From Candidatus Bathyarchaeota archaeon (GTDB taxonomy: Archaea; Thermoproteota; Bathyarchaeia; Bathyarchaeales; DTEX01), in contig CAVQNT010000007.1 of NCBI GenBank assembly GCA_963714275.1, positions 128,001-192,000 of the forward strand: a DNA stretch of 64,000 bases, read 5' to 3'. A program made the translations under genes and the position numbers. The notes beneath the pieces are model-generated. The model was not told where the DNA came from. It did not search any database and saw only the letters and a list, made by a program, of their open reading frames with translations. Shown piece after piece: positions 2,654 through 21,542 of this stretch (its first letter is position 1; every line of letters begins with the position of its first letter).

Positions 2654-2970
2654 AGAATTGTCACCAAACTTTTTTTAAACAAACTGATATAGTAAAGTAA
2701 AAATACTTGTATATTTAACTAGCTACCAAAAGAAGTCATTTTTTCACAAAATCTTTAGAATACATAGCTTATCTAGTAAGTGTTGAAAATGGTAGCAAAC
2801 AAATCTAACATTCTATATGTTTATTCCCATGACACAGATCGTTAGGGTAAACCATATGGATTTGATGTTTCTACGCCGAATATTCAGAAACTAGCAGATA
2901 CCTGTGAGTGAGCTGGGCTGGAACACCTAAAAGAGACGAATACTAATTTTATAGGTCAAATATGAGTCAT

Positions 2971-3612: not shown

Positions 3613-3619
3613 AATGCTA

Positions 3620-4621: not shown

Positions 4622-4624
4622 ACT

Positions 4625-6010
4625 TCACTTTCCCCCTCTATTACTAATCATTTGATCTTTGAAAGATTTTTTTTCAAGAAAATACATTCTTTCAACCTTT
4701 GGTTGAGATCCACCACCTTGAAATTCAGATTTCAACCAAGCATCTATGATTGTTTTTGCCAGTTCTGGACCTACAACTCTTGCTCCCATAGTAATTATCT
4801 GCGCGTTGTTGCTTTTCCTCAACCGTTCCGCGGAATAAACATCATGGCATGTACCAGCGTAGATGCCCTCAACCTTGTTGGCCACAATGGCCATTCCTAG
4901 CCCAGTACCACATATAAGAATCCCCCTATCAAATCTTCTCTTCCGAACCTCTGAAGCAAGGTTGTATCCTATATCGGGATAATAGATTTGTGTGTTACCT
5001 TTTGCATAATTAAGGTCCACAACGGGAATACCTTTACTTGTTAAATGTTCGAAGATGACTTTCTTGAGTATTAGCCCTTCATTATCCGAATCAATTGCTA
5101 TTTCCTTTTTAGCAATTGTTGAACTTGTAAATTCCTCTTGAGCATGTGAGACATCTTTAGCAATAGATTTCAAGTTTCTTAGTCCTTCCACTGCGAGCGC
5201 CTCACCTGATTCAGCGAATCTTCTCCATATTGCACATAGCCTATTTAGTTCCTCGAATCCCGGATCAAACGATTCGATAACTAGTGGTCCTGTATAACCT
5301 ATTGACTTTAATGCCGTGAAGAATTCTTTCCATGGTACTAATCCAGTTCCAGGTATTCCTCTGTTACTTTCACACATATGGACATATCCTAGGTATTCTT
5401 TTCCACAGGTTTTCACTGCGCCTGCGAAACTAGTCTCTTCTCTGATCATGTGGAAGGAATCCAGGTGTACCTTCACATTTCCAGTACCCACATCTTTGCA
5501 ATATCTTACAGCATCATCTGCTATATTCAAAAAGTGAGTTTCAAAACGGTTAACTGGTTCAACTGCGATGAAAAGATCATTCCTTTCTTTTGCATATTCT
5601 GCTACTTCTCTCATTGCTGCTATTGACCATTCCCATTCTTGCCCCGTTCTTGGTTTCCCCGTCAAGTATCCCCATGCTGCATAATTCACACCTCCCAATA
5701 TTCTTGACTCAAGTTCGATATTTATGTCTACTAATTTCTTCATGGAGTTCACTCCATTTGCTCTTATCTTTGAGTCCGGAGATATGAAATTGGTTTTTTT
5801 ATTGAGAGTGGTTGTGGTAATAATCTCTATGCCAGCTTCATTAGCTTTTGTTTTTACTTGCTTTATCGGGAAGGTTTCAGGATGGGCTATTGCTATATCA
5901 AGAACCTCAAATCCCAATTCTTTGGCTTTAGGTATTATCCAAAGGTCTCTTTCCGAAAAATCCTCTGACCATATGAACGAGTCAACACCAAACTTGGACA
6001 TTTTTCGCAC
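4625..6010 (-). CDS. Fusion of ketose 3-epimerase (D-psicose/D-tagatose type TIM barrel) and RpiB/DerI-type isomerase
   Basis: N-terminal EPVNRFE, LDSFH, H.CESNRGIPG; C-terminal GILICGTGLG, RKSNNAQIITMGARV, FQGG. Confidence 0.85.
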   Translation of the reverse strand: MRKMSKFGVDSFIWSEDFSERDLWIIPKAKELGFEVLDIAIAHPETFPIKQVKTKANEAGIEIITTTTLNKKTNFISPDSKIRANGVNSMKKLVDINIELESRILGGVNYAAWGYLTGKPRTGQEWEWSIAAMREVAEYAKERNDLFIAVEPVNRFETHFLNIADDAVRYCKDVGTGNVKVHLDSFHMIREETSFAGAVKTCGKEYLGYVHMCESNRGIPGTGLVPWKEFFTALKSIGYTGPLVIESFDPGFEELNRLCAIWRRFAESGEALAVEGLRNLKSIAKDVSHAQEEFTSSTIAKKEIAIDSDNEGLILKKVIFEHLTSKGIPVVDLNYAKGNTQIYYPDIGYNLASEVRKRRFDRGILICGTGLGMAIVANKVEGIYAGTCHDVYSAERLRKSNNAQIITMGARVVGPELAKTIIDAWLKSEFQGGGSQPKVERMYFLEKKSFKDQMISNRGGK

Positions 6011-6235
6011 CCTTTTTCCAATTATCGGAGTTTTTTATTTATCCTTTTTGGTCAGCTATTTAATTTAGTGCCATACTTTAGAACATTCATATCTAGCTAG
6101 CGTTGAGTTTTGTATATCGATATAAGCTGGAATCGGGAGGTATTCAAATGAAACAGAGACTACTGACAGCTAAAGAAATGCCATCTATGTGACTAGCGAG
6201 CTAGAGATATGGAAAAACGAGTGTTTTAGTTTACA

Positions 6236-6250
6236 GATTAAATTTTAATC
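6236..6250. repeat. 15-bp quasi-palindromic core site GATTAAATTTTAATC followed by CCAAC repeats
   Basis: Exact reverse complement of the 15-mer at 10584, 15209 and 19625. Confidence 0.85.
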
Positions 6251-6300
6251 CCAACCCAACCCAAGCTGACTAACTATGACTAGGAAATATATAGTCTCTG

Positions 6301-7975
6301 TTATCCTTCAGTCTGAGTCTTCGCTTTAGCTATGAGCTCAACCAAGTTCAGGATCAGTTTGTAGTTGTCCTCAACGTAGCAGAAAGGTTCATTAAGGAAT
6401 GTTAGGTCTCCGATTGCAACTACCTTGCCATTCCCCTTATTAACCAAGACAATGGTTGCGTAATTGTCCGCTTTCTCAGCAACAGAGGAACATGTGTCGT
6501 TGGAGGTCCAAGCCACTCCTTTCCCTGTTGAATGAATGCCTGCGGCTGTGAATAAGACAAGCGAATTCAGATTCCTTGTAAGAGAGTTATACTCGAAATT
6601 TTTTATGTATATATTTCTATAAATCCCGTAATGTTCAGCCTCGTTGTAGAGGTATCCTTTTGCGAAGGATATTCCGAATCTTGTTGCGAGCGAATTCACT
6701 GGGGCGATGATGCCTTGAATTAGTCCTTCCTGCCCAATGTACTCCCAAGCTGGGTCATAGAACATCAGAAGTAACCCTCCTCTATCAACAAACTCACTGA
6801 TGCTGGAACACTCTTCATCCATATAGACTTGTGTTGGACAAGCAACTATGAGGCATGAGGCGTATTCAGACTTGGCGCCCAACTCATCGGGTTGAGTGAC
6901 GAAGCTTACAGTCAAGTTTCTACTTGCGAGCTCCGCAATGAGAATATCGAGATCCCACCACGAAACCTGGTTACCGTGAGAAAGATCAACTATGACATCA
7001 CCATTACTAGATGCAGATGCTGCTGAAGAGATAGGAGAACTGGAGCTCTGAGAGGTTACTTGCGGAGGAAGATATATGTAATGTATTGCTGGAGGTGGGT
7101 GAAGACCGTCTAGAATCTTCAGTGTCAAGTTGCCTGAACTGATTGAGGTATAATTAGAGTATCCTTGCAGGGATGCATATGAGCTGCTGTTGTGTGATGT
7201 TAGCTCAATGACATTGTATGTTGATAAATTTGCTAGTCTTGCTGCCTTCCCGATTGCAGCTTGGAGAGATCCTGCCTCATCAACTAATCCCACATTCACA
7301 GACTTCGCTTCCAAGGTAAATCATCCCCTTTTCCAACTGAATTGATGATAGTTTCAGCTGACCTGTCCTGCTCTTATTTACTGCTGACACGAAATTGTCT
7401 AAGGCATGACTCATGTTGTAAGGAAAGAGAAGTGCAGAGAAGCCTGTGACCTTGTAAGGTCCAGTCTCTAATGTGGTTTCTGATGGAATAAGGGTGGATG
7501 GTCCTGTTCCAATCACACCGATGCTTCCAACAAACGATGTGGGAAGGGCGTAGACGTAATTGGCTGCCACTGCTATATAGTATCCTCCGGAAAGCGCTGT
7601 GACGATTGAAGCTACAACAGGCTTCGTTTCTTTAAGTACCATTAAGTCAAGGTAAACTTGCTCAACATAGTCCGCGTAGCCTCCTCCCGAATCAATCACG
7701 AGTACAACAGCCCTTACGGAATCATTGTGCACCGCCTGATTTACAAGATCAGTATACAAGCTGACATCTGAAGGCGTCTCCACATAACCTTCAATCCTTA
7801 TTATGCCAACGGTTCCCTTTTGTACAACTGGTATAACCGATGGGAACCTAAAAAAAACCTGCGGCAAGATTGCTGAAGCAGCCAAGATGCAGATAACGGT
7901 TATATATAGAATGTCACGTTTCCCCAACCTAAACCCTTTCCCTTCGTTGCCCACACTTGAAAAGATACTCATCAA
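6301..7975 (-). CDS. sppA: S49/SppA signal peptide peptidase with C-terminal DUF4350/GldG-like domain (frameshift near 7300)
   Basis: IDSGGG, ALSGGYYIA, VGSIGV; C-terminal VIVDLSHG and GGLLL motifs. Confidence 0.75.
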
Positions 7976-8052
7976 GAATCCTCCTTGCTCCTTTATGATG
8001 TAGGAATAGGTATAAATATTTCCGCGCGCGCTACAGCCATTGCTTTCAATTC

Positions 8053-8310
8053 TTATTTATTAAATGCGCCTTTGATGAACTTGTTGACAATGTTGATGAT
8101 AATGGATGTCGTCGTCTTCGTTCCGCTTGGAAATGCACCTCTAATGAAGGAATTAAGAATGTTAATTATGAAACCTATCATGCCAATGACGATGATACCG
8201 AGTGTGCAAACTTTTATGGTTATCCACACCTCGCTTCTGTCAGGCTTCTTAGCCAGCCGAATTAGCCTCGAACAGGACTTCAGGAAAGAGCCAAGTCCCA
8301 AATCAAACAA
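8053..8310 (-). CDS. secE: SecE/Sec61-gamma translocase subunit (with duplicated C-terminal segment)
   Basis: RLAKKPDRSE...GIIVIGMIGFII signature. Confidence 0.75.
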   Translation of the reverse strand: MFDLGLGSFLKSCSRLIRLAKKPDRSEVWITIKVCTLGIIVIGMIGFIINILNSFIRGAFPSGTKTTTSIIINIVNKFIKGAFNK

Positions 8311-8431
8311 CTCTTCAAGTTTCTACACAAAGGGAGAAACGACTTCTATATAAGAATATCATTTGATGGCTATTACATTTAAGCTAACTAATACCCTTGT
8401 CACTTTCTCATAAGGCATTCCGCACTCCTCA

Positions 8432-8737
8432 TTAATAATATATTTCATAAGTTCCGGGGCTATCGACGGTTAGGGTCGCTCCGTTAAAATTGTTGTAGGA
8501 CACATCATTTTTAGTTGCAGAGCGAATGCTCGCACCAACTTGGAAAACTATATCACCGGTGCCATTCTCTACTGTTACCTTAACATATCTTTCGCGGATG
8601 TTTATACGAAACTTGTTTATGTCCACGAGTGGCATGTCGCCACCTAATCTGTACGGAGTGTTAAATCCGTGTCCAAAATCAAGTTTTATGTTACCCTTAA
8701 TGTTAAGAACTAATGGCGCTGCAGACCAGTTAATCAT
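8432..8737 (-). CDS. Hypothetical protein (probably a fragment)
   Basis: ORF track only. Confidence 0.35.
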   Translation of the reverse strand: MINWSAAPLVLNIKGNIKLDFGHGFNTPYRLGGDMPLVDINKFRINIRERYVKVTVENGTGDIVFQVGASIRSATKNDVSYNNFNGATLTVDSPGTYEIYY

Positions 8738-9363
8738 TATGCCAGTTCCTAATGAAAATAAATCGTCACTCCATTTGTGGTAGAAACTGCCGGTTAAGGC
8801 ATTATCTTGGGTATCGTTTTCACATTATCGGTGAAAGACGGTTTACATTAACTGAGTGGCATATCTTGGTGGCTTTTACTGATAATCTAAACAAAGGAAA
8901 CATCGAAGAGTTTAAAAATTTTTTTATGGATCTCAATAAGAAATTAAAAAGTTGGATTTGGGGAGATTGCTTCTTATTTTGCGTCATTGCAGAATGTATT
9001 TCTATGAATGTCAATGTAATTCAGTAAAAATATATTTTTATGACTATGTATACTATTTTGTGCGCGAATACGTGGGCTTCAACGAGCTTTATATATTTGA
9101 TTTCAGAGCAGAAATCTACCTTTACATAATCACTAACACAATTATCATTATATCAGGGATTATATTGGCTTTTTACATTGCATGGAAAATTATGCTGTTT
9201 CCAGGAAAAACAAGTAAGTAAGGAAGATGGTTTAGCGTCTTAACCTTATTGGAAGACAAGCTTAATTTTGTAGAGTCCAAGTAAGTGTTTGTGTTTTTAA
9301 AGGTAACATTCAATGCCAAACAATATTCCCATGCTCTTATAGAATTTGCTTGTCATTTCATCC

Positions 9364-9894
9364 TTATGTTTCACTAATATTGATCCACGCTTCACCGTTT
9401 ATCGTCAAGAGGTCTTTTTTATTCTTGAAATCTTGATCCCACATGGTCACTTTTACGTTCTTCAGGTAGAGTATGTCACCATTTTTATCGAGAACATCAA
9501 TGTAGATGACAATGTATGTTTTGCTAATAGCAGGTAATGTAATGTTCACGGGCGTTGAAATCGGAGGTGAAGAAGAAGGATTCAACGGATACACCACTTG
9601 AGTCTCATAGACCAGAGTCTCATTGAATCCTTCCAGATGAAGCTTGTACACATTCTTCAGAGAACTGATCCAACTGTCAAACGAAAACGTGTAGGTCTGA
9701 TATGGATAATAGGAAAAAGTAGAACTCGAATTGATCGGCATATTTGGTACTTGACTCACGGATGAAACAATCGAATTTCTAATCACGTTTGAACCATAAT
9801 ATGTTGCCTGAACGAAAATATATGGAGCAGAGGCACCGATAACTATGCCCATCAGTATGGCACTAACAAGTAAGACCTTTTTGTTCACATCCAT
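9364..9894 (-). CDS. Hypothetical membrane-anchored protein
   Basis: N-terminal hydrophobic helix; GGAGG ribosome-binding site upstream. Confidence 0.7.
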   Translation of the reverse strand: MDVNKKVLLVSAILMGIVIGASAPYIFVQATYYGSNVIRNSIVSSVSQVPNMPINSSSTFSYYPYQTYTFSFDSWISSLKNVYKLHLEGFNETLVYETQVVYPLNPSSSPPISTPVNITLPAISKTYIVIYIDVLDKNGDILYLKNVKVTMWDQDFKNKKDLLTINGEAWINISET

Positions 9895-10062
9895 TCCTCC
9901 TACGTATATCTAGTTAGATAGTAATAATACTAAACATTAGAACAATTGTTCTAATCCTTCGAACGCCTCTATCCCTTGGTGCGGGCGGGGCATTTGTGTG
10001 TTCTAAAACGTAGACATAATAGATTTTTTGTATTTAACTAAAGTTGCCAAAGGTAAAATCAC

Positions 10063-10596
10063 ATGAGAATGCTAGTGGTTCTCGTCTCACTGTTAATGCT
10101 TTTCGCTGTCTCGGGCTACCTTACTTTTTTGGCGGACTCACCTATTCAGACTGCATTAAGTCTGCAACAAATGCAATCAGCAAAAAACGATTTTACGTCA
10201 TACTTCAACGTGTCCAACCCTCCTCGGCTTGAAAATTTCAGTTACTCATTTTCTCCTCCGGTCTCCATGAACCGTGCTGTTCAGATCGCGTTTGAAAGCG
10301 GAGGCTGGAACGAAACCTCGCTTAAAAATAGAACAATACTCGTTTTCCTAGCGTACTGCGCCTTCGTGAACAGCTCTTCGGTCAGCGGCTTCGAATTAAT
10401 AAGAGTAGTAACAGAACCGACCCAAGATTACTCGCCTGTCCAAATTGGCGACACAACCTACCGATATCTCTGGACTATCATCATCAGTCAACCTGGTCCT
10501 ATCCAAAGTATCCCGCCACCAGGCTACTATTATGTTGACGCAGCAACAGTGAACTATTGTCTCCAGGCATCATATGCTAGCCAGATTAAAATTTAA
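10063..10596 (+). CDS. Secreted hypothetical protein (PepSY-like YYVDAAT motif); stop codon falls inside the 15-bp core site
   Basis: Signal peptide; ORF ends ...QIKI* within GATTAAAATTTAATC. Confidence 0.65.
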   Translation: MRMLVVLVSLLMLFAVSGYLTFLADSPIQTALSLQQMQSAKNDFTSYFNVSNPPRLENFSYSFSPPVSMNRAVQIAFESGGWNETSLKNRTILVFLAYCAFVNSSSVSGFELIRVVTEPTQDYSPVQIGDTTYRYLWTIIISQPGPIQSIPPPGYYYVDAATVNYCLQASYASQIKI

Positions 10597-10598
10597 TC
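10584..10598. repeat. 15-bp core site GATTAAAATTTAATC followed by ~170 bp of CT-rich then CA-rich low-complexity sequence
   Basis: Exact match to 15209 and 19625. Confidence 0.9.
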
Positions 10599-10800
10599 TT
10601 TTTCTTCTTTCACCCGTTCGTTACCGTTCTCTCGTATTCGTTCACTCTCTGATTAGCCCATTCCCTCTCTCACTCTCTCTCAACACAAAAAAACAAACAA
10701 ATAAAAAAAACACACACAAAAACACACAAAAACAAAAACTTTATACGAACAGAAAAAGAGGGGGAAGTTGAAATCAGAATGATAGCAGTAGATGCTATGT

Positions 10801-11231
10801 TCACTTCTTTGGCGTGGGTACAACGCCGAGTTGCTGCATCAAGCCAAGAGTATCAAACCTTGCCCAGCCTTCAACGAACTTGCCGCCAGCAATGCGGTCG
10901 ATCTGATCCCCCACACCGTCACCTTCTTATTGGTAGGGGGGATGCCCATCAATTCACCTTTATGTGTGCCAGTAAATGTCCAGCGTGCGGCTACCTTGTC
11001 TCCTTCGACGACCATGTCATCCAAGGTCCAATAAATGTCGGAAAACGCGTCATAGTACGCGCTCATAAATTGTTTGAAGTCTTTGAGACCGCGTATATCG
11101 CTGCCTATGCCACTATGAAAGACGTAGTTAGTGGCGTATGTCTCGTCTATTCCGGCCATGGTGGTCGCCTTCCCCTTGTTCCACTCCTCATAAATCCGAC
11201 GCGTGAGTGCCTTAAGATCTTTTGCTGACAT
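10801..11231 (-). CDS. SnoaL-like ester cyclase (frameshift near 10905)
   Basis: DDMVVEGDKVAARWTFTGTHKGELMGIPPTNKKV; the other frame gives DRIAGGKFVEGWARFDTLGLMQQLG. Confidence 0.88.
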
Positions 11232-11350
11232 GACAAATCACCCGCTAAGAATAAGTGAGTGCGCGTGAATATTTAAGCTTAAATAATTCATTGAGCAGAA
11301 GAAAAAAGAAAAGAAATTCTCGATAGAAGTTAGAAATCAAAATTAGGCGT

Positions 11351-11419
11351 TCTGGGAATCCATGTTTCTCTTTCGCCTCTCAGAAACTTGAATAACAAGG
11401 CTTCTTCATTAATCAGCGT
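11351..11419 (-). pseudogene. cas1: 3'-terminal remnant of a cas1 paralogue
   Basis: Translates TLINEEALLF-KFLRGERETWIPR versus the intact Cas1 C-terminus TLINEEALIFAKYLRGERETWAPR. Confidence 0.85.
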
Positions 11420-11628
11420 TTTTCTTCCGTTTACCCTATACTGCCTGACTCAGTATTAATCAGCGTCCTATCCTAGCTAGTATAGTGCACACACAGTTAG
11501 TATCAGCGTCCATCTCTATGCCTTAACCAACCACTACCTTTTCTTGCAGTGCTCTGCCTTATTTCCAGAATCATAGCAGAGCAGTCCATCTAATGCTTTG
11601 ATTCCATTGATTTTTTTGTGTGTGTGTG

Positions 11629-11661
11629 CATTAAAATTTAATCCCAAAACCCAAAACCCAA
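11629..11661. repeat. Core site CATTAAAATTTAATC with (GT)n before it and CCCAAAA repeats after it
   Basis: 14/15 match to the consensus core. Confidence 0.85.
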
Positions 11662-11723
11662 TTACCATACCGTTTCGGGCTTCCAGTACACACGAGAGTG
11701 GGAAAATGATAAAAAATTTAATA

Positions 11724-12026
11724 TTACCAATGACTTCGCAGTCTCTTCCCGCTTACCCTTAGTAATGTTCTGATCATCTTGCCATTTCTAAGAAGTCTGT
11801 GAAGAAGCTCTCCATTTTCTGTTTTTCTATAATAATAATGTTCAGTTTCACGTATTTCCTCAATTAATTTGTCTTTAATTAGAAAATTATCCATCCATTG
11901 TCGGAATTGGGCTTCGTTTCCAAGTATTTTTATCAGATCCCACTTTGAAGACTTTCCCTTTTTTTGATCAATGCAATCAAGAAGCTCTAATGCGATAATG
12001 TCTGGCGCTCTCCTAGGAATAGACAT
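11724..12026 (-). CDS. Winged helix-turn-helix protein
   Basis: RRAPDIIALELL...YYRKTENGE, an archaeal wHTH pattern. Confidence 0.7.
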   Translation of the reverse strand: MSIPRRAPDIIALELLDCIDQKKGKSSKWDLIKILGNEAQFRQWMDNFLIKDKLIEEIRETEHYYYRKTENGELLHRLLRNGKMIRTLLRVSGKRLRSHW

Positions 12027-12036
12027 AGCAGCTCTC

Positions 12037-12378
12037 CTAGGATTCTTTCAATTCATCCTGAATTTTGAATAACTTAGAGTACTTGCCACTAAGTCTAAAG
12101 TAGTTGAAAATCTGGGCTAATCCACAGAATATCAATACTCCTCCAACGAATAATGGTATGTAAAGGCGACTTTGAAGGACATCCATGTTGGATAGGATTG
12201 TCTCCACGCCAAACAGTAGTGAGATAAGCCCGAAAAACAGATAGGTCTTAACGCCCCAATAAAGGTCTTTTACAAGATCCTTCGCATCAACAATTAGATT
12301 CTCAAATATCGCATTCAGAGTCGATATCTTTTCGACCTGTTTTTTCTCTGTTAGTCCTTCATCCTCCATTTCTATCAC
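12037..12378 (-). CDS. Two-TM hypothetical membrane protein
   Basis: Two hydrophobic helices; GGGAG upstream. Confidence 0.65.
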   Translation of the reverse strand: MIEMEDEGLTEKKQVEKISTLNAIFENLIVDAKDLVKDLYWGVKTYLFFGLISLLFGVETILSNMDVLQSRLYIPLFVGGVLIFCGLAQIFNYFRLSGKYSKLFKIQDELKES

Positions 12379-12691
12379 CTACACTCCCAATTCCTGAGAG
12401 TGCATAAAACATTTGTTCTGAAAATAGTCACATAACTACTTCTAGCTGGAATTTCTTGCTTAGGTTTGTGTGATATACGTTAAACACGATACAGGGGATG
12501 CAGAGTAATGAAGCGGATAAGAAAGAGAATTTTAAAGGTGTAATTAAATAGTTTTACATTGTTAGCGATCAGGACCCTGAAGAAAGATACAACGTCTGTC
12601 CCTTTGGTTCATAATCTTAATGTTAATTGTGACTAACATGTGTTTCTCGGTTAAAACTCAATAAGAAAAAACTAGCTAATAGGTGTTTAAT

Positions 12692-12952
12692 GTGAGTACT
12701 AAACGTTCACGGATTGAAATTTACCTCGACATTTTACAGACAATAAAAAAAGGCGTCAACAAGCCCACCCGCATCATGTACAGTACTAACCTTTCCTGGA
12801 AGCCTCTTACGCGGGTTCTCGACACAATGATGGAGCAAAAGTGAATTACTTATGAAGAGATAGGTAACCACATAACTTACAAGATTACAGAGAAAGGCAC
12901 GAATGTGATCAACTACTTCCATGAAGCCATGCAACTCATAGAAATCAAATAA
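12692..12952 (+). pseudogene. Winged-helix transcription regulator with an internal TGA; not in the ORF track; stop codon overlaps the degenerate core at 12947
   Basis: Manual translation MSTKRSRIEIYLDILQTIKKGVNKPTRIMYSTNLSW...K*ITYEE...YKITEKG. Confidence 0.75.
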
Positions 12953-12961
12953 ATTTTAGTC
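12947..12961. repeat. Degenerate core site AAATAAATTTTAGTC followed by CCACACACA
   Basis: 12/15 match with a C/A-rich arm like the other copies. Confidence 0.6.
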
Positions 12962-12975
12962 CCACACACAAGATC

Positions 12976-14168
12976 TCATTCAGTCTTATGAAGCATCTTT
13001 TTGTAGTAGTTCTTTGCTGCGTATATCCTTTTGTTTCCTTCAGCTGCACAGATTGATAAGCATCTTGCGCAGGACCATTCTGGAAATAATGATATCATCT
13101 GTCCCCTTTCGTCACAACACTGACCAAAATCAAACTGGAGTTTTCCTTCCCAGAACCTGTGTTTTTGTTTTGCAGTTTGTTCTAGAAACCTTCCATTGGG
13201 GGTTGGAGCAGAATTTGACTGGGCTCCAGAAGGACAGCAACCAATACATTTTCCGCAACCTTCATCATCATAAGGAATGTAAGTGCAGAATCGATACTTG
13301 TTAATTTCTAACTCGGTGTTTGTAAAATCAAATAATTTGAATAGAAACTCACGCCAGTCTTTAGAAGGATAAATAACACCATTACTACCATCATTAACCA
13401 AGTCTTCCTTGTCAAACATGATGATGGACCTGATTGGACCAACAAATCTCTTGACCTCTCCGTCAATAAATTGATCCCTAAAGACGATCCTCGATATTCC
13501 GAACTGCCCAAGACCCATGAGCACAGCGATGCTCTTTTGTGGATAGTTGCCGCCTTTGGATGGTCCATGGGAAACGCCTTGATGCGTTAGAGGTACAGCC
13601 TCTGTGGAAACATTCTTAACGTTCTCATTGTCCATTGCTACTACCACTCTATCATCCGCGACGAGATCAATAGCAACCCTACTGGTAGCTTTATCTATCA
13701 TTAGATTCACATCTTCATACATTCGAGAGAACAGGTGAGAAGAGCCCCTCTTCTTTTCATGGATAAGCGAGTATAATCCTCAATGACTTTTAGAGAAAAA
13801 GGCAGCATTACAGAAATTATCACTACTCGACTATAATTTTTAAGCGCGAAATTGAAGGAACGGGGAACTTGAAAGATTGTTTGTCTGCCATACTCGTCAA
13901 CATTTTCTTTTCTCCTATTTGCATAGAACTCCCAGATCTCCTGTAAACCGACTGGAAAGAAGCCAACAACTGCTGGATTTCTTAACCCTTCCCACAAATC
14001 ATAGTTTAAAGGAACATTCCCAACAGCTAATTTTACAGCAGGCTCCCCATTTTCATCCAAGGCATACTTTATATTATCTCTACCCCACTGGAATTCTGGC
14101 TCTTCTTGCAGTTCAGTTATCTTCTCCTTGAATATGTTTGTAAGTTCGCTTATAACATCTATCACCAT
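12976..14168 (-). CDS. Fe-S protein of the epoxyqueuosine reductase/reductive dehalogenase-like family (frameshift near 13750)
   Basis: QKSIAVLMGLGQFG, CGKCIGCCP, CARCLSIC. Confidence 0.7.
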
Positions 14169-14350
14169 ATAAAAAACATCTCTTTGGGATTATAATTCAA
14201 AATTTCTATGCTAAACGATTAAAGACTTTTGGTGCATGTGTTTTTTGTATGATTTGTATGATTAATTGGTAGATTAGTTAATTGATTGATATAGTGAGAG
14301 AGAGATTGAGATTGGGTGATCGTTAAGTTGGAATAAAATTTCAATTCCTT

Positions 14351-14365
14351 CCTTAAAATTTAACC
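14351..14365. repeat. Degenerate core site CCTTAAAATTTAACC, with a second partial copy at 14331-14347
   Basis: 12/15 match; G/T-rich tract upstream (14230-14330), pyrimidine tract downstream. Confidence 0.65.
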
Positions 14366-14443
14366 TTTTTCTTCTGTTCTGTGTGCTCTCTACTTTCATA
14401 CAACAAATATATCAAGGGAATGGCTAGCTAGCCAAGTATACGA

Positions 14444-15114
14444 TTGAAGGATGTGCTAATGAAAAAAAGAGTGTTACTGAACCTTGTAAGTGTGGCAGCT
14501 ATCTCAGTTATCTCTGCTATAATTTTGTGGGATATCCTGTTCTTACAGAGAAGCCTGGGACAAATTGGACTATTCAGCATCTTTTTTGTCTCAATGATTA
14601 GCCACATGACAATCGTGGCTAGAGATATGTTTTTGCCTTTGTTTCTATCACTCAAGCTGGAGTACAATCCTATTCTTCTCGGAATACTTGCTGGTTGGGG
14701 AGGAGCATTAGGTGATGTTTCTTCCTATTTTCTGGGCTGGGGAATTGGTGAGTCCATACGAAATGAGCAAGGAGGAGGCAAAATCATCTGACTCGATGGA
14801 TAAAACAACATGGTCTGTGGGCGGTCTTATTGTTCGCTGTAACTCCATTGCCTGACACGCCGATTCTTATTCTCGCGGGATCAAGCCAACTTCCATTCAA
14901 GAAGCTACTACTCGTCGAGGGCATAGGTAAAACCGCATTATACAGCCTAGGGGGATTTGTGGGCAGTTTTATAATGGAGGATTTCAGTGGCACAATTGGA
15001 AGTTTGTATTCCTCCATTGCCATAGTTGTTTTATCAATAATATTCTGCATCCTAATCACATGGAACAGAAGTAGGAAGGCTCTTTTCGGCTGGCTCGAGA
15101 AGTTTATACACTAA
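14444..15114 (+). CDS. VTT/SNARE-associated (DedA/YqaA-like) membrane protein (frameshift near 14780)
   Basis: GGALGDVSSYFLG and FAVTPLPDTPILILAG motifs. Confidence 0.8.
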
Positions 15115-15122
15115 CTGCAGCA

Positions 15123-15191
15123 AGTAGCAACTATTCTAGGAATCCACATTTCTCGTCCGACTCTTAGATACTTTGCAAATAGTAAGACTTC
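15123..15191 (-). pseudogene. cas1: Second 3'-terminal remnant of a cas1 paralogue
   Basis: Translates EVLLFAKYLRVGREMWIPRIVAT versus intact EALIFAKYLRGERETWAPRIAVT. Confidence 0.8.
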
Positions 15192-15208
15192 AGAGGGCTC
15201 GCGAGAAA

Positions 15209-15283
15209 GATTAAAATTTAATCCCCAAACCCAAACCCAAACCCAAACCCAAACTACCTCACTCTACCTCACTCTCTCTCTAG
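15209..15283 (+). repeat. Left terminal repeat: core + (CCCAAA)5 + CTC-rich tract
   Basis: Read directly; imperfect inverted copy at 19561-19639. Confidence 0.9.
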
Positions 15284-15359
15284 TAATACCTAAAGAAACC
15301 AAGAAACCAACAAACAATCAAACAAACGAACAAACAAACAGAACAAAAACAAATAAAAA

Positions 15360-16183
15360 TTACTCTGAGCAGTCGGTAAGTGAAGGTAGATTGGGCAATT
15401 TACTACTAACCCAATCATGGAGAGTTTGGCATGCCTTCGGTCTATCTATGGATCCTTTCGAGTCCATCCATTCTTTCCAAACATCATAGAACTCTTTCAT
15501 CTCCTTCAATAGGGGGTCAACCTTTTTATCAACTAATATATCCTTCTTAAGATCTGAAAAGCTGTTGTAGTTTCTCTCTCTAACCCAATGACTTAGGTAG
15601 ACGAGTCTACTAGTTATGTACATCATCATGTCTTGGCAAAGCCCTGCTGTACCTTCAAGGCTTTTCTTCCAGTCAGGATCTCCAAGCCATTGTTGGGCTC
15701 GTGCGTAGTCAGTAACGTCCTGAGCAAATAGACTCCATGTGTAGAATATGTTAACAACGCTATTGTAGAGTCTTAGCTCCTTGTCAAAGAACATAAGACT
15801 TATGAAGATATGGCGTAGCCAAGCTGTAGTCATATCCCACAAGAATCTCTGACCAATTTGTTCTTGCTTACGCTATCAATGAATTCTTTAATATTACTCC
15901 TGTGCAGTTCCAGATTCCTCAAAATATAGCCGATTGTGGTAGTACATGTCAGACCATATCTCGAGATATCGCTATTTATTGCGTCTATTCCTTGATCGAG
16001 ATATACCATCTCAATATTCCTATTGATCTCTGACCTTCGTTGCAGTCTGAATTGGTACCAAGTGATTATTATACTTCCTATTATGCCGCTTCCAAAGAGA
16101 AGTGTGAGAATGATATTCCAATCCAAATCCATGAATAAAAGATAACCGACAATGTATTTAATCTTTAACAAGGCTGATTTCAT
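15360..16183 (-). CDS. Cargo hypothetical protein with N-terminal TM helix (frameshift near 15840)
   Basis: Two abutting ORFs directly downstream of cas1. Confidence 0.6.
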
Positions 16184-16189
16184 AATAGT

Positions 16190-17224
16190 TCAAGTGACTG
16201 CGATTCTTGGTGCCCAAGTTTCCCGTTCTCCTCTAAGGTATTTAGCGAAAATTAAGGCTTCTTCGTTAATCAATGTTTCAAGGGTTTGTCTTTGACCGTG
16301 TTTGATTCTGGGAATTTCAACCTTAGACTCAAAAAAGAGGTTAAGCTTCCTCATCAAGTCTGAAGTCTTGGAATCGTTCAAGTATTCTCTTTTGCCCTTC
16401 TTAATCCTTGAAAGCCTTTCAGTCTTAACCGTGAAGTCTTTAACCTTGAGATTTTGGCAATATTGAACCAAAAAATCATCGATTAGATAACGATAGAGTT
16501 CTTGAAAATCGCATACTAAACTGGGCTTTCCGAACTGAATTGAATGCAAAAAGCCTAAGTAAGGTTCAAGCTTCGCCTTTATTATGGCTCTGTGAATCTT
16601 CCACTTTAAGACTTCATAGGCAAGATTGAAAGTGTTGTTCATGCCATCATAGGCTAAAAATGTCTCCCTAGAATGAGGTCTAACCTTTTCTGGAAACAGC
16701 ATGAAAATTCTACGAAAGTAAGCCCTAGAGTATTTGGCTTCAAAAGCTGACAGTCTCATCCTAATATGGTCTAGACTTTCTGACTCAATTCCTTCAATCT
16801 CATGTTTAAAACCCAAATTATGCGGTTCTAAACCATACTTTTCTAAGACTTTGTTCTGTCCCTCAATCTTGCATTGAACGAACTGTTTAGCGATACCGAT
16901 TCCCTTCCCGTTCTGCAAAGCTTCATACTGACATACTCTGGTTTTGACGTGGGAATCGTCTTCTAGGCTTCTCAACATCGCAACAGGTCTTCCTCTCTGA
17001 GTCAAGATTAAGACATCTATGTCCCAGAATCCTAGAGACGCTAAAGCTCCTGTGGAAACAGAGTTACCGCTTTTTAGAATGACTTCTCCTATTTCTTGTT
17101 CAAACAATGGATACCTGTCAACATTGTCATTTTTGTCCTTAACTACGAAACAGCCTTTCTCCATGCCTAAATACGAGCCTTGACCGTCAAGAACAAGTTT
17201 TAAGACTTTAGAACCTTGAACCAT
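16190..17224 (-). CDS. cas1: Cas1 endonuclease/integrase, stand-alone (not CRISPR-linked)
   Basis: G.YLG...G.FVV N-terminus; catalytic E (FEAKYSRAYF), H (LGFLH) and D (SLVCDFQELYR); NNTFNLAY. Confidence 0.96.
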   Translation of the reverse strand: MVQGSKVLKLVLDGQGSYLGMEKGCFVVKDKNDNVDRYPLFEQEIGEVILKSGNSVSTGALASLGFWDIDVLILTQRGRPVAMLRSLEDDSHVKTRVCQYEALQNGKGIGIAKQFVQCKIEGQNKVLEKYGLEPHNLGFKHEIEGIESESLDHIRMRLSAFEAKYSRAYFRRIFMLFPEKVRPHSRETFLAYDGMNNTFNLAYEVLKWKIHRAIIKAKLEPYLGFLHSIQFGKPSLVCDFQELYRYLIDDFLVQYCQNLKVKDFTVKTERLSRIKKGKREYLNDSKTSDLMRKLNLFFESKVEIPRIKHGQRQTLETLINEEALIFAKYLRGERETWAPRIAVT

Positions 17225-17308
17225 TATTTCACTCTCTTTTCATCACATTATCATTACGCAAGATAGATATATAAGAATTGTGATGATAAAGTAATGAGGA
17301 TGTAGTGA

Positions 17309-17470
17309 ATGATACGAAGTCTTAAATTAAAAAGAACACTTTCAGAATCAGGTAGAACTTTAGTTCTCAGAATACCTAAAGACATTGAAAGGTCTCTTTT
17401 GCTTAAGCTTGGAAACGAAGTCTACATATGGGTTGAAAATGGAAAAATTATCGTAGAACCTATAAGTTAA
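17309..17470 (+). CDS. AbrB/MazE/SpoVT-family DNA-binding protein (53 aa), divergent from cas1
   Basis: Manual translation ...SGRTLVLRIPKDIERSLLLKLGNEVYIWVENGKIIVEP. Confidence 0.85.
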   Translation: MIRSLKLKRTLSESGRTLVLRIPKDIERSLLLKLGNEVYIWVENGKIIVEPIS

Positions 17471-17527
17471 GTCTTTCACTTAGCAAATTTAAGACTTCAG
17501 CTCGTCAACCCCATAGAAGTGAACTCC

Positions 17528-17671
17528 TCACTCCTCAGCCTTCTTCCTTCCATACTCAATGGCTTCGTTGATAGTTTCACATTCATACAGTTCAGAGCTG
17601 AAAAACGAGAAACGGTAAATACCTTCTTGTTTCTTCTCTGTAACTTCATATTTAACCTTAAATTTCCTCAC
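17528..17671 (-). CDS. Small hypothetical protein (47 aa; frame continues to 17489 past a TGA)
   Basis: Manual translation; GTG start overlaps the upstream stop, GAGGTG ribosome-binding site. Confidence 0.5.
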   Translation of the reverse strand: MRKFKVKYEVTEKKQEGIYRFSFFSSELYECETINEAIEYGRKKAEE

Positions 17672-17841
17672 TTTTTCACCTCACTTTGTGGCGGTTCAAA
17701 GACCAAAGTGTAAGCCTTTTTCCCTTCAAGCACCTCTTTGACTTCGTCAATTTTCACGAAATATCGAACGTGTTTTATGACTACAGAGAGCTTCAAACTG
17801 TTCTTGGTTAAACTGACATAGCCACAGTCTTTCCAAACCAT
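17668..17841 (-). CDS. Small hypothetical protein (57 aa)
   Basis: Manual translation MVWKDCGYVSLTKNSLKL...; GAGGTG upstream. Confidence 0.6.
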   Translation of the reverse strand: MVWKDCGYVSLTKNSLKLSVVIKHVRYFVKIDEVKEVLEGKKAYTLVFEPPQSEVKK

Positions 17842-17907
17842 AACCCTTTCACCTCTCGAATACTGTCTTTTTTATCCTTCAAGTAAGCATTGATACGTTT
17901 CAAATTG

Positions 17908-18351
17908 TCAAACTCGAGACTTTTGAGTTTCAAGGTACTCTTTGACTTGTCCATCTTGCTTTCCATACCCGAAAACAACTCGTGGAGGAGGCTTCTTTCC
18001 TTTGCTTAGACACCTTACGGTTGAAGTTGTCTTAAGTCCCTGCATCAAGACATAGTTTTTTAAAGGTTCAATGTTTGACAGTCTCGCAACCCAGTCCATG
18101 ATTTTAACGTTTGTTTCCCATCTTACTCTGCGGTTGAAAATTACCGAAAAATTTCTCGAAATGTATCCATGTACCAGTTTGTGCCGAATTCTAATTAGAT
18201 GTTCTCGACTGCTTGACTCCAAAATTACGAATCCGTTCTGGTGATGGTACTTGCACACCATAAAAGCCCAAAATTTCACGATTGACAATGAAGTATTATC
18301 TATGTCTAGGCGAACTGTGTCGTTGCTCCAGTCTCCCCAATAAGGACTCAT
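17908..18351 (-). CDS. Hypothetical protein, possible minimal archaeo-eukaryotic primase (AEP)-like fold
   Basis: VRLDID (DxD), FVILESS...NFSVIF (motif II-like, His absent), STVR. Confidence 0.5.
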   Translation of the reverse strand: MSPYWGDWSNDTVRLDIDNTSLSIVKFWAFMVCKYHHQNGFVILESSSREHLIRIRHKLVHGYISRNFSVIFNRRVRWETNVKIMDWVARLSNIEPLKNYVLMQGLKTTSTVRCLSKGKKPPPRVVFGYGKQDGQVKEYLETQKSRV

Positions 18352-18828
18352 TTAGGATTCGACCTCTTTCTGATCCCATGTTTTTTCCATATCGAGATAT
18401 TTGTCTGGGTTTCCCGTGATGTTCGTGGCTTTGATTGTTAGGAATTGCTTCTTAGGTGGATGTTGGCTAGCAAGCATCATGGCTTTGTATAGTTCACGTC
18501 CAGAACCATGCATCTGGATTCTTTTTGATTCTCCGTCCACTTTGCCATAAACTGCAACATGTTTGCCTCTGGGAGCTCTTCTTCTTACAACTTTAGTGGG
18601 TTTTCTGGGTTTTTTCCTATACTTGGTCGGAGTGTATTTTGATGGCTCAGATTTGGGTTTCCGTCCCTTAAATTCCCGCACATAGCCTAAGAGCTTCTGC
18701 CTCTTCATGCCCATGTGATGAGCTTGAAGGTCTCGTTGAATAGCGTTTGCACTCATGCCTTTCGCTGAGTCAGCCTTGATTCGGTCAACCTGCTCTTTAG
18801 ATGCTCCCCCTTTCTTAGGCATAGTCAA
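18352..18828 (-). CDS. Basic (K/R-rich) putative DNA-binding protein
   Basis: N-terminal HTH-like GMSANAIQRDL; very basic composition. Confidence 0.65.
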   Translation of the reverse strand: MTMPKKGGASKEQVDRIKADSAKGMSANAIQRDLQAHHMGMKRQKLLGYVREFKGRKPKSEPSKYTPTKYRKKPRKPTKVVRRRAPRGKHVAVYGKVDGESKRIQMHGSGRELYKAMMLASQHPPKKQFLTIKATNITGNPDKYLDMEKTWDQKEVES

Positions 18829-19155
18829 AAGCCCTTCTCAAGTTCTATCAGCTCATGCGCTACTCGGAGATAATCCTCAATCGTAGAACGCTTAAAATAC
18901 AGTCCTAGAGATGTTGCTATTTGGTTCTCGGGAATTCCACTCTGCAAAAGTTGTTTGACTTTGTCGATATTGTATTTTCGTCTTGATGAGCCTTCGCCTT
19001 TGCTCCATTGGTCTAAAAATTGATTATTAAGGAGCTTTGCTGATTCTGGAAGAGTCTTTTTTGAATTCTGTATCTAAGTCTTTTTTAGGCTTCTTTTTTT
19101 CTTTTAGACTTTTTTCTATGTCCTTCAGTTCTTCTACGGTTGATTTTTCAGTCAC
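18825..19155 (-). CDS. HTH-containing hypothetical protein (frameshifted, missing from the ORF track)
   Basis: Manual translation ...IDKVKQLLQSGIPENQIATSLGLYFKRSTIEDYLRVA; overlaps neighbouring starts and stops. Confidence 0.55.
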
Positions 19156-19367
19156 TGTTTAGTCTCCTTTTCAATTTCGATTTGATGTTTTAGGTGCTGA
19201 AGCAGAATTTCCAGAGAACGCTTGACTTGTGTTGTCGTTAATTTTGGATTGTAGAGGACGACGGCGAAAGCATTAGGAAGAGCCTTTGGGCTTTCGCCTA
19301 GAATGTTAATGAAGTCTTGAGGGATGTACATACTGTTTTCTTTGTTTATGCTCATTTGTCTGTCCAT
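19152..19367 (-). CDS. Small AbrB-like protein, first gene of the element's leftward operon
   Basis: MSINKENSMYIPQDFINILG pattern; TATA box about 40 bp upstream. Confidence 0.55.
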   Translation of the reverse strand: MDRQMSINKENSMYIPQDFINILGESPKALPNAFAVVLYNPKLTTTQVKRSLEILLQHLKHQIEIEKETKQ

Positions 19368-19419
19368 ATCATTTCACTATGAAAATCTGAGGATTTGGAT
19401 AAGTATATAAAACTTATGC

Positions 19420-19475
19420 TTCAATTTATATCAAATTGATATAGATTTGTTTCAATTTACTATAAATTGATATAG
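19420..19475. promoter_or_regulatory. Two tandem palindromic operators TCAATTT-N5-AAATTGA (31-bp period)
   Basis: TTCAATTTATATCAAATTGATATAG at 19420-19444 and TTCAATTTACTATAAATTGATATAG at 19451-19475, just upstream of the minus-strand TATA box. Confidence 0.7.
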
Positions 19476-19560
19476 GTTTATTTCTCTGTTCTGACTGTGT
19501 GTGGTGCGTATCTTTCTCTGTTTGTCTGTCTGACTGACTGTTCGTCTGACTGACTATCCT

Positions 19561-19639
19561 CTGAGAGAGAGGGAGAGAGAGGTTGAGGTAGAGTGAGTTA
19601 GAGAGTTTGGGTTTGGGTTTGGGGGATTAAAATTTAATC
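19561..19639 (-). repeat. Right terminal repeat: GAG-rich tract + (TTTGGG)3 + core
   Basis: Read directly; inverted counterpart of 15209-15283. Confidence 0.9.
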
Positions 19640-19941
19640 TTCTTCTCAGGTCTATTTGTTGCTTCGAGAACTAGGCGTCCTCGCCACCCACATTTTCTGC
19701 ATTCAAACTTGGGAGAAGTTAGAAACCTGTGAGCCAGCATGTCTCCATTCATGGTTCCAACTCTCTTAACCTGAGGACTTTTGCATCTAGGACAGATTTG
19801 GATATCAACATACTTTCCCTGTTTCCTCAATTTCTCCAATGTTTCTAACAATTTAGAAATATTTTGGCTTTCACTATCCTCTGTACAAGCAACAGGCTGT
19901 CGCTTCCCCTTCTTTTCCTCTTTCATTTCTTTATCGCTCAT
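19627..19941 (-). CDS. Zn-ribbon protein; stop codon lies inside the core site
   Basis: CPRCKS...FECRKCGW; ends ...KIKF*. Confidence 0.7.
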   Translation of the reverse strand: MSDKEMKEEKKGKRQPVACTEDSESQNISKLLETLEKLRKQGKYVDIQICPRCKSPQVKRVGTMNGDMLAHRFLTSPKFECRKCGWRGRLVLEATNRPEKKIKF

Positions 19942-20066
19942 ATACTAAAACCTCTCTAGCATCATAAAATCCTTTTTAAGTTCATTCTTAACAATCTAAG
20001 CTAAGAACTTGACCTTATCCTGATCTCCACGCATTTCAATAATTTTGTGAGATTTTTAAAGCGATG

Positions 20067-21333: not shown

Positions 21334-21542
21334 TCCTTTCCTATCTCTTTCTGATTTGTTATCCTATCCTCCTCAATTTTATTATCTCGTTGGAGATATT
21401 TAAATATATTTATTACTTTTCTTATCTTTATAAATATAAATATTTCTGAAAATCGCAACGAAAACCGTGTTAAAATGGGTTTTTGCGTCAGTCTTGCGTA
21501 AGATTTAATATGGCTTTCTCGTATCCAATTTAGGAATCTGGG

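Follow-up and report, generated by a model that had tools for sequence, protein, structure and literature searches.

In the passages of Krupovic et al. (2014, PMC4046053) and Koonin and Makarova (2019, PMC6452270) that set out casposon families 1-4, two genes are universal, those for Cas1 and for a family B DNA polymerase (PolB). The sections of Krupovic et al. (2016, PMC4779613) on casposon insertion describe tandem insertions that share a target-site duplication, as well as solo repeats left by degradation. The DNA analysed here (the window: 64,000 nucleotides of Candidatus Bathyarchaeota archaeon, assembly GCA_963714275.1, contig CAVQNT010000007.1, positions 128,001 to 192,000 of the forward strand) belongs to a genome with elements that resemble casposons in their terminal inverted repeats, a target-site duplication of about 14-15 bp, sequence-specific insertion, variable cargo, and a Cas1 homologue with intact catalytic residues that is the only integrase candidate present. 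They differ from casposons in the absence of PolB from all three intact elements of this genome, in their size of just 4.4-6.4 kb, in their G-poor, low-complexity repeats, in a target that is a dispersed 15-bp AT-rich palindrome (the core; 91 loci in the genome at up to two mismatches), and in a Cas1 whose phmmer scores against solved structures favour CRISPR Cas1 (4n06, 4.4e-24) over the M. mazei casposase (6opm, 3.8e-11). They also differ from a CRISPR adaptation module, since their cas1 has neither an adjacent cas2 nor a CRISPR array.

The intact element of the window, the third unit of an array, is laid out as follows.

15209-15223: core, right target-site copy
15224-15281, minus strand: right terminal inverted repeat of (CCCAAA)n type, the low-complexity arm running on to about 15359
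15360-16183, minus strand: cargo in the form of two ORFs, of 160 and 117 aa, that separate the cas1 stop from the right repeat and match no family
16190-17224, minus strand: intact cas1 (344 aa); Pfam PF01867, E 7.8e-46; TIGR00287 (NCBIfam cas1 equivalog), 160.7 bits
17309-17470, plus strand: divergent 53-aa AbrB/MazE-like ORF; weak match (E 0.002); the corresponding ORF of the C4 element is 78% identical
17497-19367, minus strand: ORFs of the left part; no family match, 0-2 relatives each elsewhere in the genome
19574-19624, plus strand: left terminal inverted repeat
19625-19639: core, left target-site copy, oriented like 15209-15223

The right arm pairs with 19574-19623, over 46 nt at 76% or 50 nt at 86% depending on which of two alignments is taken. 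With the latter value, this 4.4-kb element with its direct core copies joins two other full-length elements of the genome: one on C4 (6.0 kb, inverted repeats of 118 nt at 100%, direct core copies flanking) and one on C2 (6.4 kb, repeats of 109 nt at 100%), where a rare GACT variant of the core, GACTAAATTTTAATC, stands at both ends. A fourth element, in a genome of another genus (G021), has repeats of 72 nt at 94% and direct copies of ATAAAAATTAAAT on its flanks. All four intact elements, if the variants of C2 and G021 are counted, therefore carry same-orientation core copies at both ends, and in the intact elements transcription of cas1 runs towards the right repeat, from which 0.1-2.3 kb of variable genes separate it. 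An empty target site was not found in congeners. The repeat-plus-duplication structure is directly visible in these elements, and the 15-mer core is the target site that these small inverted-repeat transposons, which encode Cas1 and no DNA polymerase, duplicate.

Residues E162, H227, D239 and E242 are invariant in seven of seven members of the Cas1 family and align with the catalytic E/H/D/E of 4n06; we infer that Cas1 is the transposase of these elements. Profiling of the ORFs inside the three intact elements of the genome returned neither PolB nor any other transposase family. The genome has PF00136 matches at three places, all outside the intact elements; the one in the window, at 25882-28140, falls beyond the repeats, and five of six congeners conserve it at 66-88% identity. 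Nor was there a PF09827 (cas2) match in the genome (91% complete), a cas gene family among the neighbours of cas1, or an Rfam family between window positions 5500 and 21500. Relatives of this Cas1 family number more than 2000 in the database at E 1e-10 or better, the best 120 of these being 65-82% identical, and their source annotation says only 'CRISPR-associated Cas1'. A polymerase-less Cas1 transposon family of this kind seems undescribed. Because the assembly is in 10 contigs, 91% complete and 3.7% contaminated, repeat arrays could be misjoined.

Integron cassette arrays consist of gene cassettes separated by short palindromic sites, and an integron-like or Xer-type platform would make the cores tyrosine recombinase sites (used, for example, by the gene whose remnant lies at 20067-21333) and cas1 a passenger. 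An XerA-like match does stand beside the array end (NF040815, 5.1e-8, partial), and site-specific recombination also leaves flanking direct repeats. However, the gene at 20067-21333 is broken by four in-frame stops and scores 19.3 bits, under the cut-off, and an intact integron integrase is absent. Tyrosine recombinase genes show no association with cores (a core lies near 3 of 16, against 2.51 at random, and 46% of trials reached 3), whereas cas1 shows a strong one, and the units have transposon-type inverted repeats, which at 109-118 nt and 100% identity are a transposon hallmark. We therefore consider such a platform very improbable.

The other two units lack most of cas1.

10584-10598: core at the right end of unit 1; 15-bp near-palindromic GATTAAAATTTAATC, a shared target-site copy
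about 10599-10745, minus strand: G-poor low-complexity arm, the right terminal repeat of unit 1; inverted partner not found
10839-11231, minus strand: SnoaL-like cargo gene of unit 1 (Pfam SnoaL, 6.9e-25, profile positions 4-99 of 126)
11330-11425, minus strand: cas1 3' remnant 1, covering codons 315-344 or so and closing with a lineage-specific end, PRTPNFDF and stop
11629-11643: core that unit 1 has in common with its upstream neighbour on the minus strand
14353-14365: core variant at the right end of unit 2, TTAAAATTTAACC, one mismatch in 13
about 14366-14412, minus strand: G-poor arm of unit 2, then CTAGCTAG at 14424
14444-15114, plus strand: membrane-protein-like cargo gene of unit 2, as two ORFs in different frames (14444-14791 and 14830-15114)
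15111-15191, minus strand: cas1 3' remnant 2, codons about 322-344, then CCS and stop

The earlier note had read two minus-strand peptides, at 11351-11419 and 15123-15191, as matches to the Cas1 C-terminus; the translations are exact, and both are matched by tblastn and by a family HMM built from seven intact genes. Over Cas1 residues 317-340, remnant 1 has 83% identity (tblastn E 3.7e-5 across the genome; HMM i-Evalue 1.4e-7). Remnant 2, 65% identical to residues 322-344, is the weaker match (tblastn E 0.011; HMM i-Evalue 0.002 among 102,999 six-frame fragments), and we accept it as genuine because it starts 18 nt from the core at 15209, in the orientation and layout of the other units, a judgement that leans on position. 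No ORF of at least 50 aa contains either tail, and the stops that close their frames lie at 11330-11332 and 15111-15113. The order that the earlier note had described, namely core, low-complexity (G-poor) arm, cargo and cas1 3' end, is true of all three units. Its view that the tails stem from different cas1 elements, diverged from one another, is likewise borne out, as is the presence of variable genes in the interval from the cas1 stop to the arm and core. Overall, we think it probable, with real room for doubt, that the two frames preserve the 3' ends of cas1 genes as fossils and that the cassettes are right-end fragments of two older, different elements.

The homology and layout seen in the window recur in a one-sided pattern across the genome. 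There are 26 places with the C-terminus of Cas1 but no body, against 2 with an internal part only and none with the N-terminus only, contrary to what would be expected if remnants of other cas1 regions were equally common. A core follows within 3.2 kb downstream for 18 of 30 tails, where random placement gives a mean of 2.71 and none of 2000 trials reached 18; the link between remnants and cores thus holds genome-wide, and with the three core-flanked full-length elements it upholds the earlier claim that the repeat array is tied to Cas1. The arm preceding the downstream core of a tail is always C-poor, the distance from tail to element end is 0.1-3 kb, and relatives show the same tails, then arm and core. 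Within the window the core pattern occurs 20 times at up to two mismatches, against 6.96 expected, a count reached by none of 100 shuffles. Of 182 arms, 73 are G-poor, and only 3 facing pairs stand at element distance (4.4-6.4 kb).

Tails could in principle also be attachment-site duplicates, left by small elements that integrate at the cas1 3' end and carry a copy of it, as tRNA-gene-targeting elements do. The tails of the window do lie downstream of the intact cas1 and in the same orientation, but the inverted repeats enclose cas1 together with its cargo and leave tail 2 outside, beyond the core, so that the repeat boundaries already contradict this reading. Moreover, identity between the tails and the intact end is only 65-83%, and most tails elsewhere have no intact cas1 upstream. 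We find the proposal scarcely credible.

What, then, has been lost from the truncated units? MITEs and Ds-type elements keep both terminal repeats and are mobilisable, and the units here resemble them as non-autonomous leftovers of an autonomous element that may hold a piece of the transposase gene. They differ in that a left repeat, sought as a partner for the right arm within 9 kb upstream, was present in 0 of 16 truncated units. We therefore reject a MITE or internal-deletion derivative; the cassettes, which had been described as internally deleted, are instead one-ended right-end fragments. Indeed, those of the window amount to degraded remnants of the solo-repeat kind, a right arm and core with only 23-30 cas1 codons. 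The comparison with Methanosarcina, as far as the sections of PMC4779613 on tandem casposons and solo repeats go, is close in several respects: repeated insertion at one target builds arrays whose neighbours have a target-site copy in common, the older copies have been inactivated, and degradation yields one-ended remnants that can outnumber intact elements. Relative to the remnants covered in those sections, those here also keep cargo genes and the cas1 3' end, their loss is strongly one-sided, and many of their left junctions have CTAG palindromes.

The SnoaL cassettes form a truncation series. The tail and cargo combination of remnant 1 recurs at C10, with cas1 codons 250-342, and at C3, with codons 317-343, beside codons 317-340 in the window; at C7:124516 a paralogous cassette has no tail, its core being joined 26 nt after the former cas1 stop. 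Two congeners have further tail-plus-SnoaL copies. The inner part of the unit 1 arm is common to the paralogous cassettes and the outer part is different. Long ORFs (130-659 aa) occupy the cargo interval in about 12 of 15 truncated units with cargo, and dN/dS among SnoaL copies is 0.43-0.99, on few codons. Both cargos of the window are broken: aligned with its paralogues, the SnoaL gene shows a 1-nt gap near codon 107, which puts its C-terminus out of frame, and the unit 2 cargo, which lies on the plus strand opposite to its tail and has no second copy in the genome, is split over two frames and therefore probably a pseudogene. Present-day selection on cargo thus cannot explain the persistence of these two cassettes. 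At the left junctions, a CTAGC/GCTAG motif lies within 80 nt upstream in 10 of 24 cases, against 1.41 at random, a count of 10 being reached in none of 3000 trials, and 3 junctions abut a core or core-like site within 20 nt. These non-random junctions, which count against the fossil-end reading, point to a specific junction-forming process.

On the fossil-end explanation, each insertion of a small inverted-repeat Cas1 transposon duplicates its target, a near-palindromic, AT-rich site of 15 bp, and in the resulting tandem array neighbouring elements share one core copy. The window cassettes keep core, right repeat, a now broken cargo and the last 23-30 codons of cas1, and have lost the left repeat, the left genes and the cas1 body, while the cas1 tail persists passively because it adjoins the retained part of the element. 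We infer that the one-sided loss reflects truncating rearrangements in arrays together with past selection on cargo.

Non-LTR retrotransposons leave series of copies that agree at the 3' end but are truncated to varying extents at the 5' end. The likeness is one of pattern only, since the elements here are DNA transposons with inverted repeats and reverse transcriptase is absent; nonetheless, the fragments might likewise be direct products of the transposition machinery rather than of decay, by aberrant excision or mobilisation from a pseudo-end in or just after the tail, or by abortive one-ended copying from the right end, as in 5'-truncated LINE copies. The extreme one-sidedness (26 C-terminal places against no N-terminal-only one) would fit, as would the three tails that abut a core or core-like site at codons 320-323, the joining of the C7:124516 core to a T/C-rich tract resembling the start of a left repeat, and the presence of GATTAA, a half-core, inside cas1 codons 318-320 (TTGATTAAC). 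The broken cargos of the window also fit, since selection is then not what keeps the fragments now. At the same time, 21 of 24 left junctions lie away from a core, a left pseudo-repeat is not detectable, and homology starts over codons 169-325 without a sharp peak, which also speaks against both the deletion hotspot and the cis-acting role suggested in the earlier note. Copies of one cassette are 78-84% identical and therefore old, with no sign of a recent spread of truncated units. Truncation by the machinery itself is, in our estimation, unlikely.

Repeated retention of the same tip had also suggested a role in cis, for instance as a binding site, a cargo promoter or terminator, or a homology handle for swapping cargo modules. 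Within the protein, the tail ranks with the better conserved parts (identity 0.67-0.68), and tails are 72-89% identical at the DNA level across otherwise diverged copies. Shuffling of modules is indicated by a cargo that is found beside three different outer arms and by an arm family that is found beside different cargos. But synonymous sites in the tails of intact genes are ordinary: the same-codon fraction is 0.47-0.53 in the tail, against 0.37-0.59 in the rest of the gene (seven intact genes). Residues 222-241 are more conserved (0.83), yet no remnants of them exist. Tails carry stops, indels and frameshifts, with stop codons inside 11 of 26 partial cas1 matches of genome G000; the unit 2 tail is convergent with its cargo; and the tailless SnoaL cassette still has its putative promoter region. 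A position 0.1-3 kb from the element end is too variable for a terminal binding site. We see no sign that the tail acts in cis, and regard the suggestion as quite improbable.

A more far-reaching reading goes beyond these. A CRISPR-type Cas1 without Cas2 or polymerase would be the transposase of a very abundant archaeal family, whose arrays of 15-bp palindromic repeats and kilobase-long inserts would be a living analogue of the proposed step from casposon insertions to CRISPR arrays; units of tail, cargo, right repeat and core would arise by a directional, Cas1-dependent reaction at pseudo-sites such as the GATTAA half-core at codons 318-320, and not by passive decay. Taken as a whole, this chain of propositions is unlikely.

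The tails look like debris but serve as a marker, tying to Cas1 a genome-wide palindrome-plus-arm repeat (91 cores) whose function was previously unknown, and exposing polymerase-less Cas1 transposons that insert repeatedly at one short palindromic site. Annotators should take isolated short matches to the Cas1 C-terminus in these archaea for transposon scars rather than for broken CRISPR loci. Confirmation of Cas1 as the transposase would call for a wider definition of casposons than that of self-synthesising elements, and target choice and array growth could then be studied in repeat arrays that Cas1 builds in nature.

The window carries two short stretches that translate exactly into the Cas1 C-terminal peptides quoted for them in the earlier note, and both lie in an array of units built around a 15-bp near-palindromic AT-rich core:

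10584: core of unit 1, the cassette with a SnoaL-like cargo
11351-11419, minus strand: remnant 1, the cas1 3' end of unit 1
14353: core variant of unit 2
15123-15191, minus strand: remnant 2, the cas1 3' end of unit 2
15209-15223 and 19625-19639: the two cores of the intact element (unit 3)
16190-17224, minus strand: cas1 of the intact element, a 344-aa ORF identified as Cas1 (PF01867, E 7.8e-46; TIGR00287, 160.7 bits)

By tblastn against the whole 2.64-Mb genome, remnant 1 matches Cas1 residues 317-340 at 83% identity (E 3.7e-5), with one codon missing, and remnant 2 matches residues 322-344 at 65% identity (E 0.011). A family profile derived from seven intact Cas1 family members returns i-Evalues of 1.4e-7 and 0.002, respectively, over 102,999 six-frame fragments. 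On match score alone remnant 2 is marginal; weighing its position as well, we consider a chance origin very unlikely, since it lies 18 nt from a core and shows the standard orientation and layout. The order proposed earlier for all three units, namely core, low-complexity (here G-poor) arm, cargo and cas1 end, is present in each of them; what does not carry over to unit 2 is the strand and frame of the cargo, which lies on the strand opposite to the tail and is split across two reading frames. That cargo, which may resemble a DedA/YqaA-like membrane protein, has no meaningful match in Pfam at E values up to 1. Directly upstream of the tail of unit 1 (11403-11510, minus strand), the initial 12 nt of remnant 1, ACGCTGATTAAT, are present twice more at a spacing of ~45-50 nt, and this motif includes GATTAA, half of the core.

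All three full-length elements in the source genome (G000), read with cas1 on the top strand, are enclosed by inverted repeats:

element on contig C4: 6.0 kb, inverted repeats of 118 nt at 100% identity
element on contig C2: 6.4 kb, inverted repeats of 109 nt at 100% identity, cas1 frameshifted
window element: 4.4 kb, inverted repeats of ~50 nt at 86% identity

Immediately outside each repeat, at both ends of all three elements, lies one copy of the 15-mer, in the same orientation despite the near-palindromic nature of the motif. The C2 element has an identical rare core variant (GACT...) at both ends, an element in a genome of another genus (G021) has 72-nt repeats of 94% identity with direct ATAAAAATTAAAT on both flanks, and neighbouring units have one core in common. 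This combination of repeats and direct cores is what a transposon with a 13-15 bp target-site duplication leaves behind when it reuses the same target. A fixed insertion orientation relative to the asymmetric core centre was not found: two intact elements have AAATTTT and one has AAAATTT, and the tails are mixed, about 9 versus 8.

All seven family members retain the Cas1 catalytic residues E, H, D and E without variation. Among the ORFs inside the three elements there are no polymerase or other transposase matches, and a Cas2 family match was found nowhere in the genome (91% complete). The PolB gene 6 kb from the window element (25882-28140, minus strand) is a host chromosomal gene and not a casposon polymerase, because it lies outside the inverted repeats and is kept in five of six congeners at 66-88% identity. 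A 53-aa AbrB/MazE-like ORF (17309-17470, plus strand), divergent from cas1, may have a conserved regulatory function in the element, given its 78% identity to a counterpart in the C4 element. An Rfam search of window positions 5500-21500 returned zero families.

Surveyed with the family profile, the whole genome contains 3 full-length cas1 places, 26 that reach the C-terminus from a start after residue 150, 2 limited to residues 274-325 and none with N-terminal or central parts alone, so that remnants of other cas1 regions are far from equally common. Among the 26 are one decayed whole gene, whose N-terminal piece is still present and colinear, and a pair of identical copies that belong to a large inverted duplication. 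The C-terminal excess is not merely a detection bias, because residues 222-241 and 82-101 (identity 0.83 and 0.74) are as conserved as the tail (0.67-0.68) or more so. Downstream on the cas1 strand, a core lies within 3.2 kb of 18 of the 30 C-terminal tblastn places (random mean 2.71; 18 was reached in none of 2000 trials), and a C-poor arm stands just ahead of the core in all 18; remnant 2 is omitted from this count and becomes the nineteenth if the core variant at 14353 is accepted. Two parts of the proposed interpretation hold up: distinct cas1 elements gave rise to the tails, and the link of the tails with the core is genome-wide. Contig C2 has two inverted copies (~85.2 kb and ~966.8 kb) of a core that is accompanied by both arms and by a cas1 tail; they are 100% identical, lie 880 kb apart and stem either from a large inverted duplication or from an assembly artefact.

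Among relatives, cas1 matches occur in 25 of 41 genomes, some of which, 27-34% identical, are ordinary CRISPR cas1; in one genome 24 matches occur without a single intact copy, and at the loci examined, arm and core variants lie downstream of the tails. A stop at cas1 codon 313 (Gln313) recurs in at least five diverged remnants of the source genome (C2:346629, C4:95919, C1:90050, C6:376919 and C2:480571), and remnants in relatives have corresponding stops at codons 311, 312 or 313. The shared Gln313 stop reflects either common descent from a nonsense-mutant lineage or repeated C-to-T change.

The cassettes had been described as internally deleted derivatives of such elements, a description that has to be revised: the left repeat is absent in all 16 truncated units. 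With left and right set by cas1 pointing right, the reverse complement of each unit's right arm was sought up to 9 kb upstream, and a partner is present in all three full-length elements and in none of the 16 truncated units. G-poor arms were counted in 73 of 182 cases, with only 3 facing pairs at element distance. Therefore, the window cassettes are one-ended right-end fragments, not internal deletions with both ends, and the core to the left of each cassette is the right-end core of the adjoining unit. An attachment-site model, with integration into the cas1 3' end, was rejected, as tail 2 is found on the far side of the core, outside the inverted repeats, which enclose both cas1 and the cargo.

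Both suggestions on why the tip is retained, a cis function and one deletion hotspot, also have the evidence against them. The starts of cas1 homology are spread over residues 166-325; an in-frame stop accounts for several apparent starts at 315, where homology in fact extends further upstream. Stop codons occur in 11 of 26 partial cas1 matches in this genome, and there is no codon-level excess, the share of identical codons among identical residues in intact genes being 0.47-0.53 for the tail, compared with 0.37-0.59 for the rest of the gene. The SnoaL cassette, the type that carries remnant 1, exists in four copies of 78-84% identity, one of them without a tail:

copy on contig C10: cas1 residues 250-342
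copy in the window: cas1 residues 317-340
copy on contig C3: cas1 residues 317-343
copy at C7:124516: no cas1 at all, core joined 26 nt past the former stop codon

Further tail-plus-SnoaL copies, in differing contexts, are found in two congeners. Taken by themselves, the two remnants are unremarkable products of decay.

As to why the loss is one-sided, past selection on the cargo may have contributed. Long open frames (130-659 aa) between tail and arm in about 12 of 15 cargo-bearing truncated units, whose cas1 comprises 20-175 codons, favour this reading. At the same time, the cargo is damaged in both window cassettes (dN/dS for SnoaL draws on few comparable codons owing to frame breaks), and this damage, together with non-random left junctions, speaks against cargo selection as the full answer. 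CTAGC/GCTAG occurs no more than 80 nt upstream of the left junction in 10 of 24 cases (random 1.41; 0 of 3000 trials), and three left junctions, at codons 320-323, abut a core or core-like site. The palindrome CTAGCTAG, to which the enrichment just ahead of truncated cas1 tails also applies, lies within 300 nt of a core at 15 of its 108 sites (2.25 at random). These junctions and the CTAGCTAG pattern make a directional, element-driven process a possible source of the one-sided loss, which we rank second. CTAGCTAG is commoner in the genome than expected (108 versus 37.6 from base composition), CTAG itself is rarer than expected, and none of the three intact elements has the palindrome at its ends; the window sites of CTAGCTAG are 6093, 11473, 14424, 24876, 41576, 53695 and 59061. 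At C4:95919-99114 (1920-5115 of locus L039), an H+-pyrophosphatase gene (659 aa) and a CBS-domain gene lie between an orphan tail and the next arm and core; if these count as 'cargo', housekeeping-type genes can land inside such units.

Beside the intact element, at its left core, lies the remnant of a XerA/integron-integrase-like tyrosine recombinase (20067-21333, minus strand), which is broken up into overlapping ORFs; its Pfam match scores under the cut-off and is interrupted by 4 in-frame stops. A tyrosine recombinase or integron platform was rejected, this neighbour being broken and association with cores amounting to 3 of 16 within 3.2 kb versus 2.51 at random. Window positions 12533-12954 hold a multi-copy stretch (~280-420 bp) whose ORF 12683-12844 specifies a putative DNA-binding protein of small size; the stretch recurs, 78-89% identical, in at least 8 other places in the genome and in four congeners, and terminates at a degenerate core-like site (12950-12961). 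A host block conserved genus-wide begins at 21429, and the DNA to its left, back to at least 4001, is absent at the corresponding place in six congeners. Next to the block, the closest relative has DNA that matches the end of contig C6 of G000. The array locus is a synteny break, and for this reason no clean empty site was found in congeners. Three public sequencing runs, each with only 0.06 of the sampled words, gave no sign on excision or mobility, and run assembly at 88% likeness yielded other organisms' contigs and repeat-driven joints with short sides.

As far as the available text of PMC4046053 and PMC6452270 defines them, casposons combine Cas1 and a family B polymerase with inverted repeats and a target-site duplication. 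The element family shares Cas1, inverted repeats and target-site duplication with casposons but is without a polymerase, and its repeated use of one target resembles the reuse of a single target by Methanosarcina casposons described in the available part of PMC4779613. In a score comparison, as distinct from a tree, the element Cas1 matches a CRISPR Cas1 better than it does the solved casposase. Full-text literature searches on casposons in Bathyarchaeota/Bathyarchaeia and on non-autonomous or polymerase-less casposons returned nothing relevant in the collection searched, the supplementary element tables of PMC4046053 and PMC4779613, which might hold exceptions, lying outside that search; casposons go unmentioned in the main text of PMC10691335. 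Databases label the many relatives of this Cas1, mostly from Bathyarchaeia, only 'CRISPR-associated Cas1'. The interest resides in this family of elements with its repeat arrays, not in the remnants.
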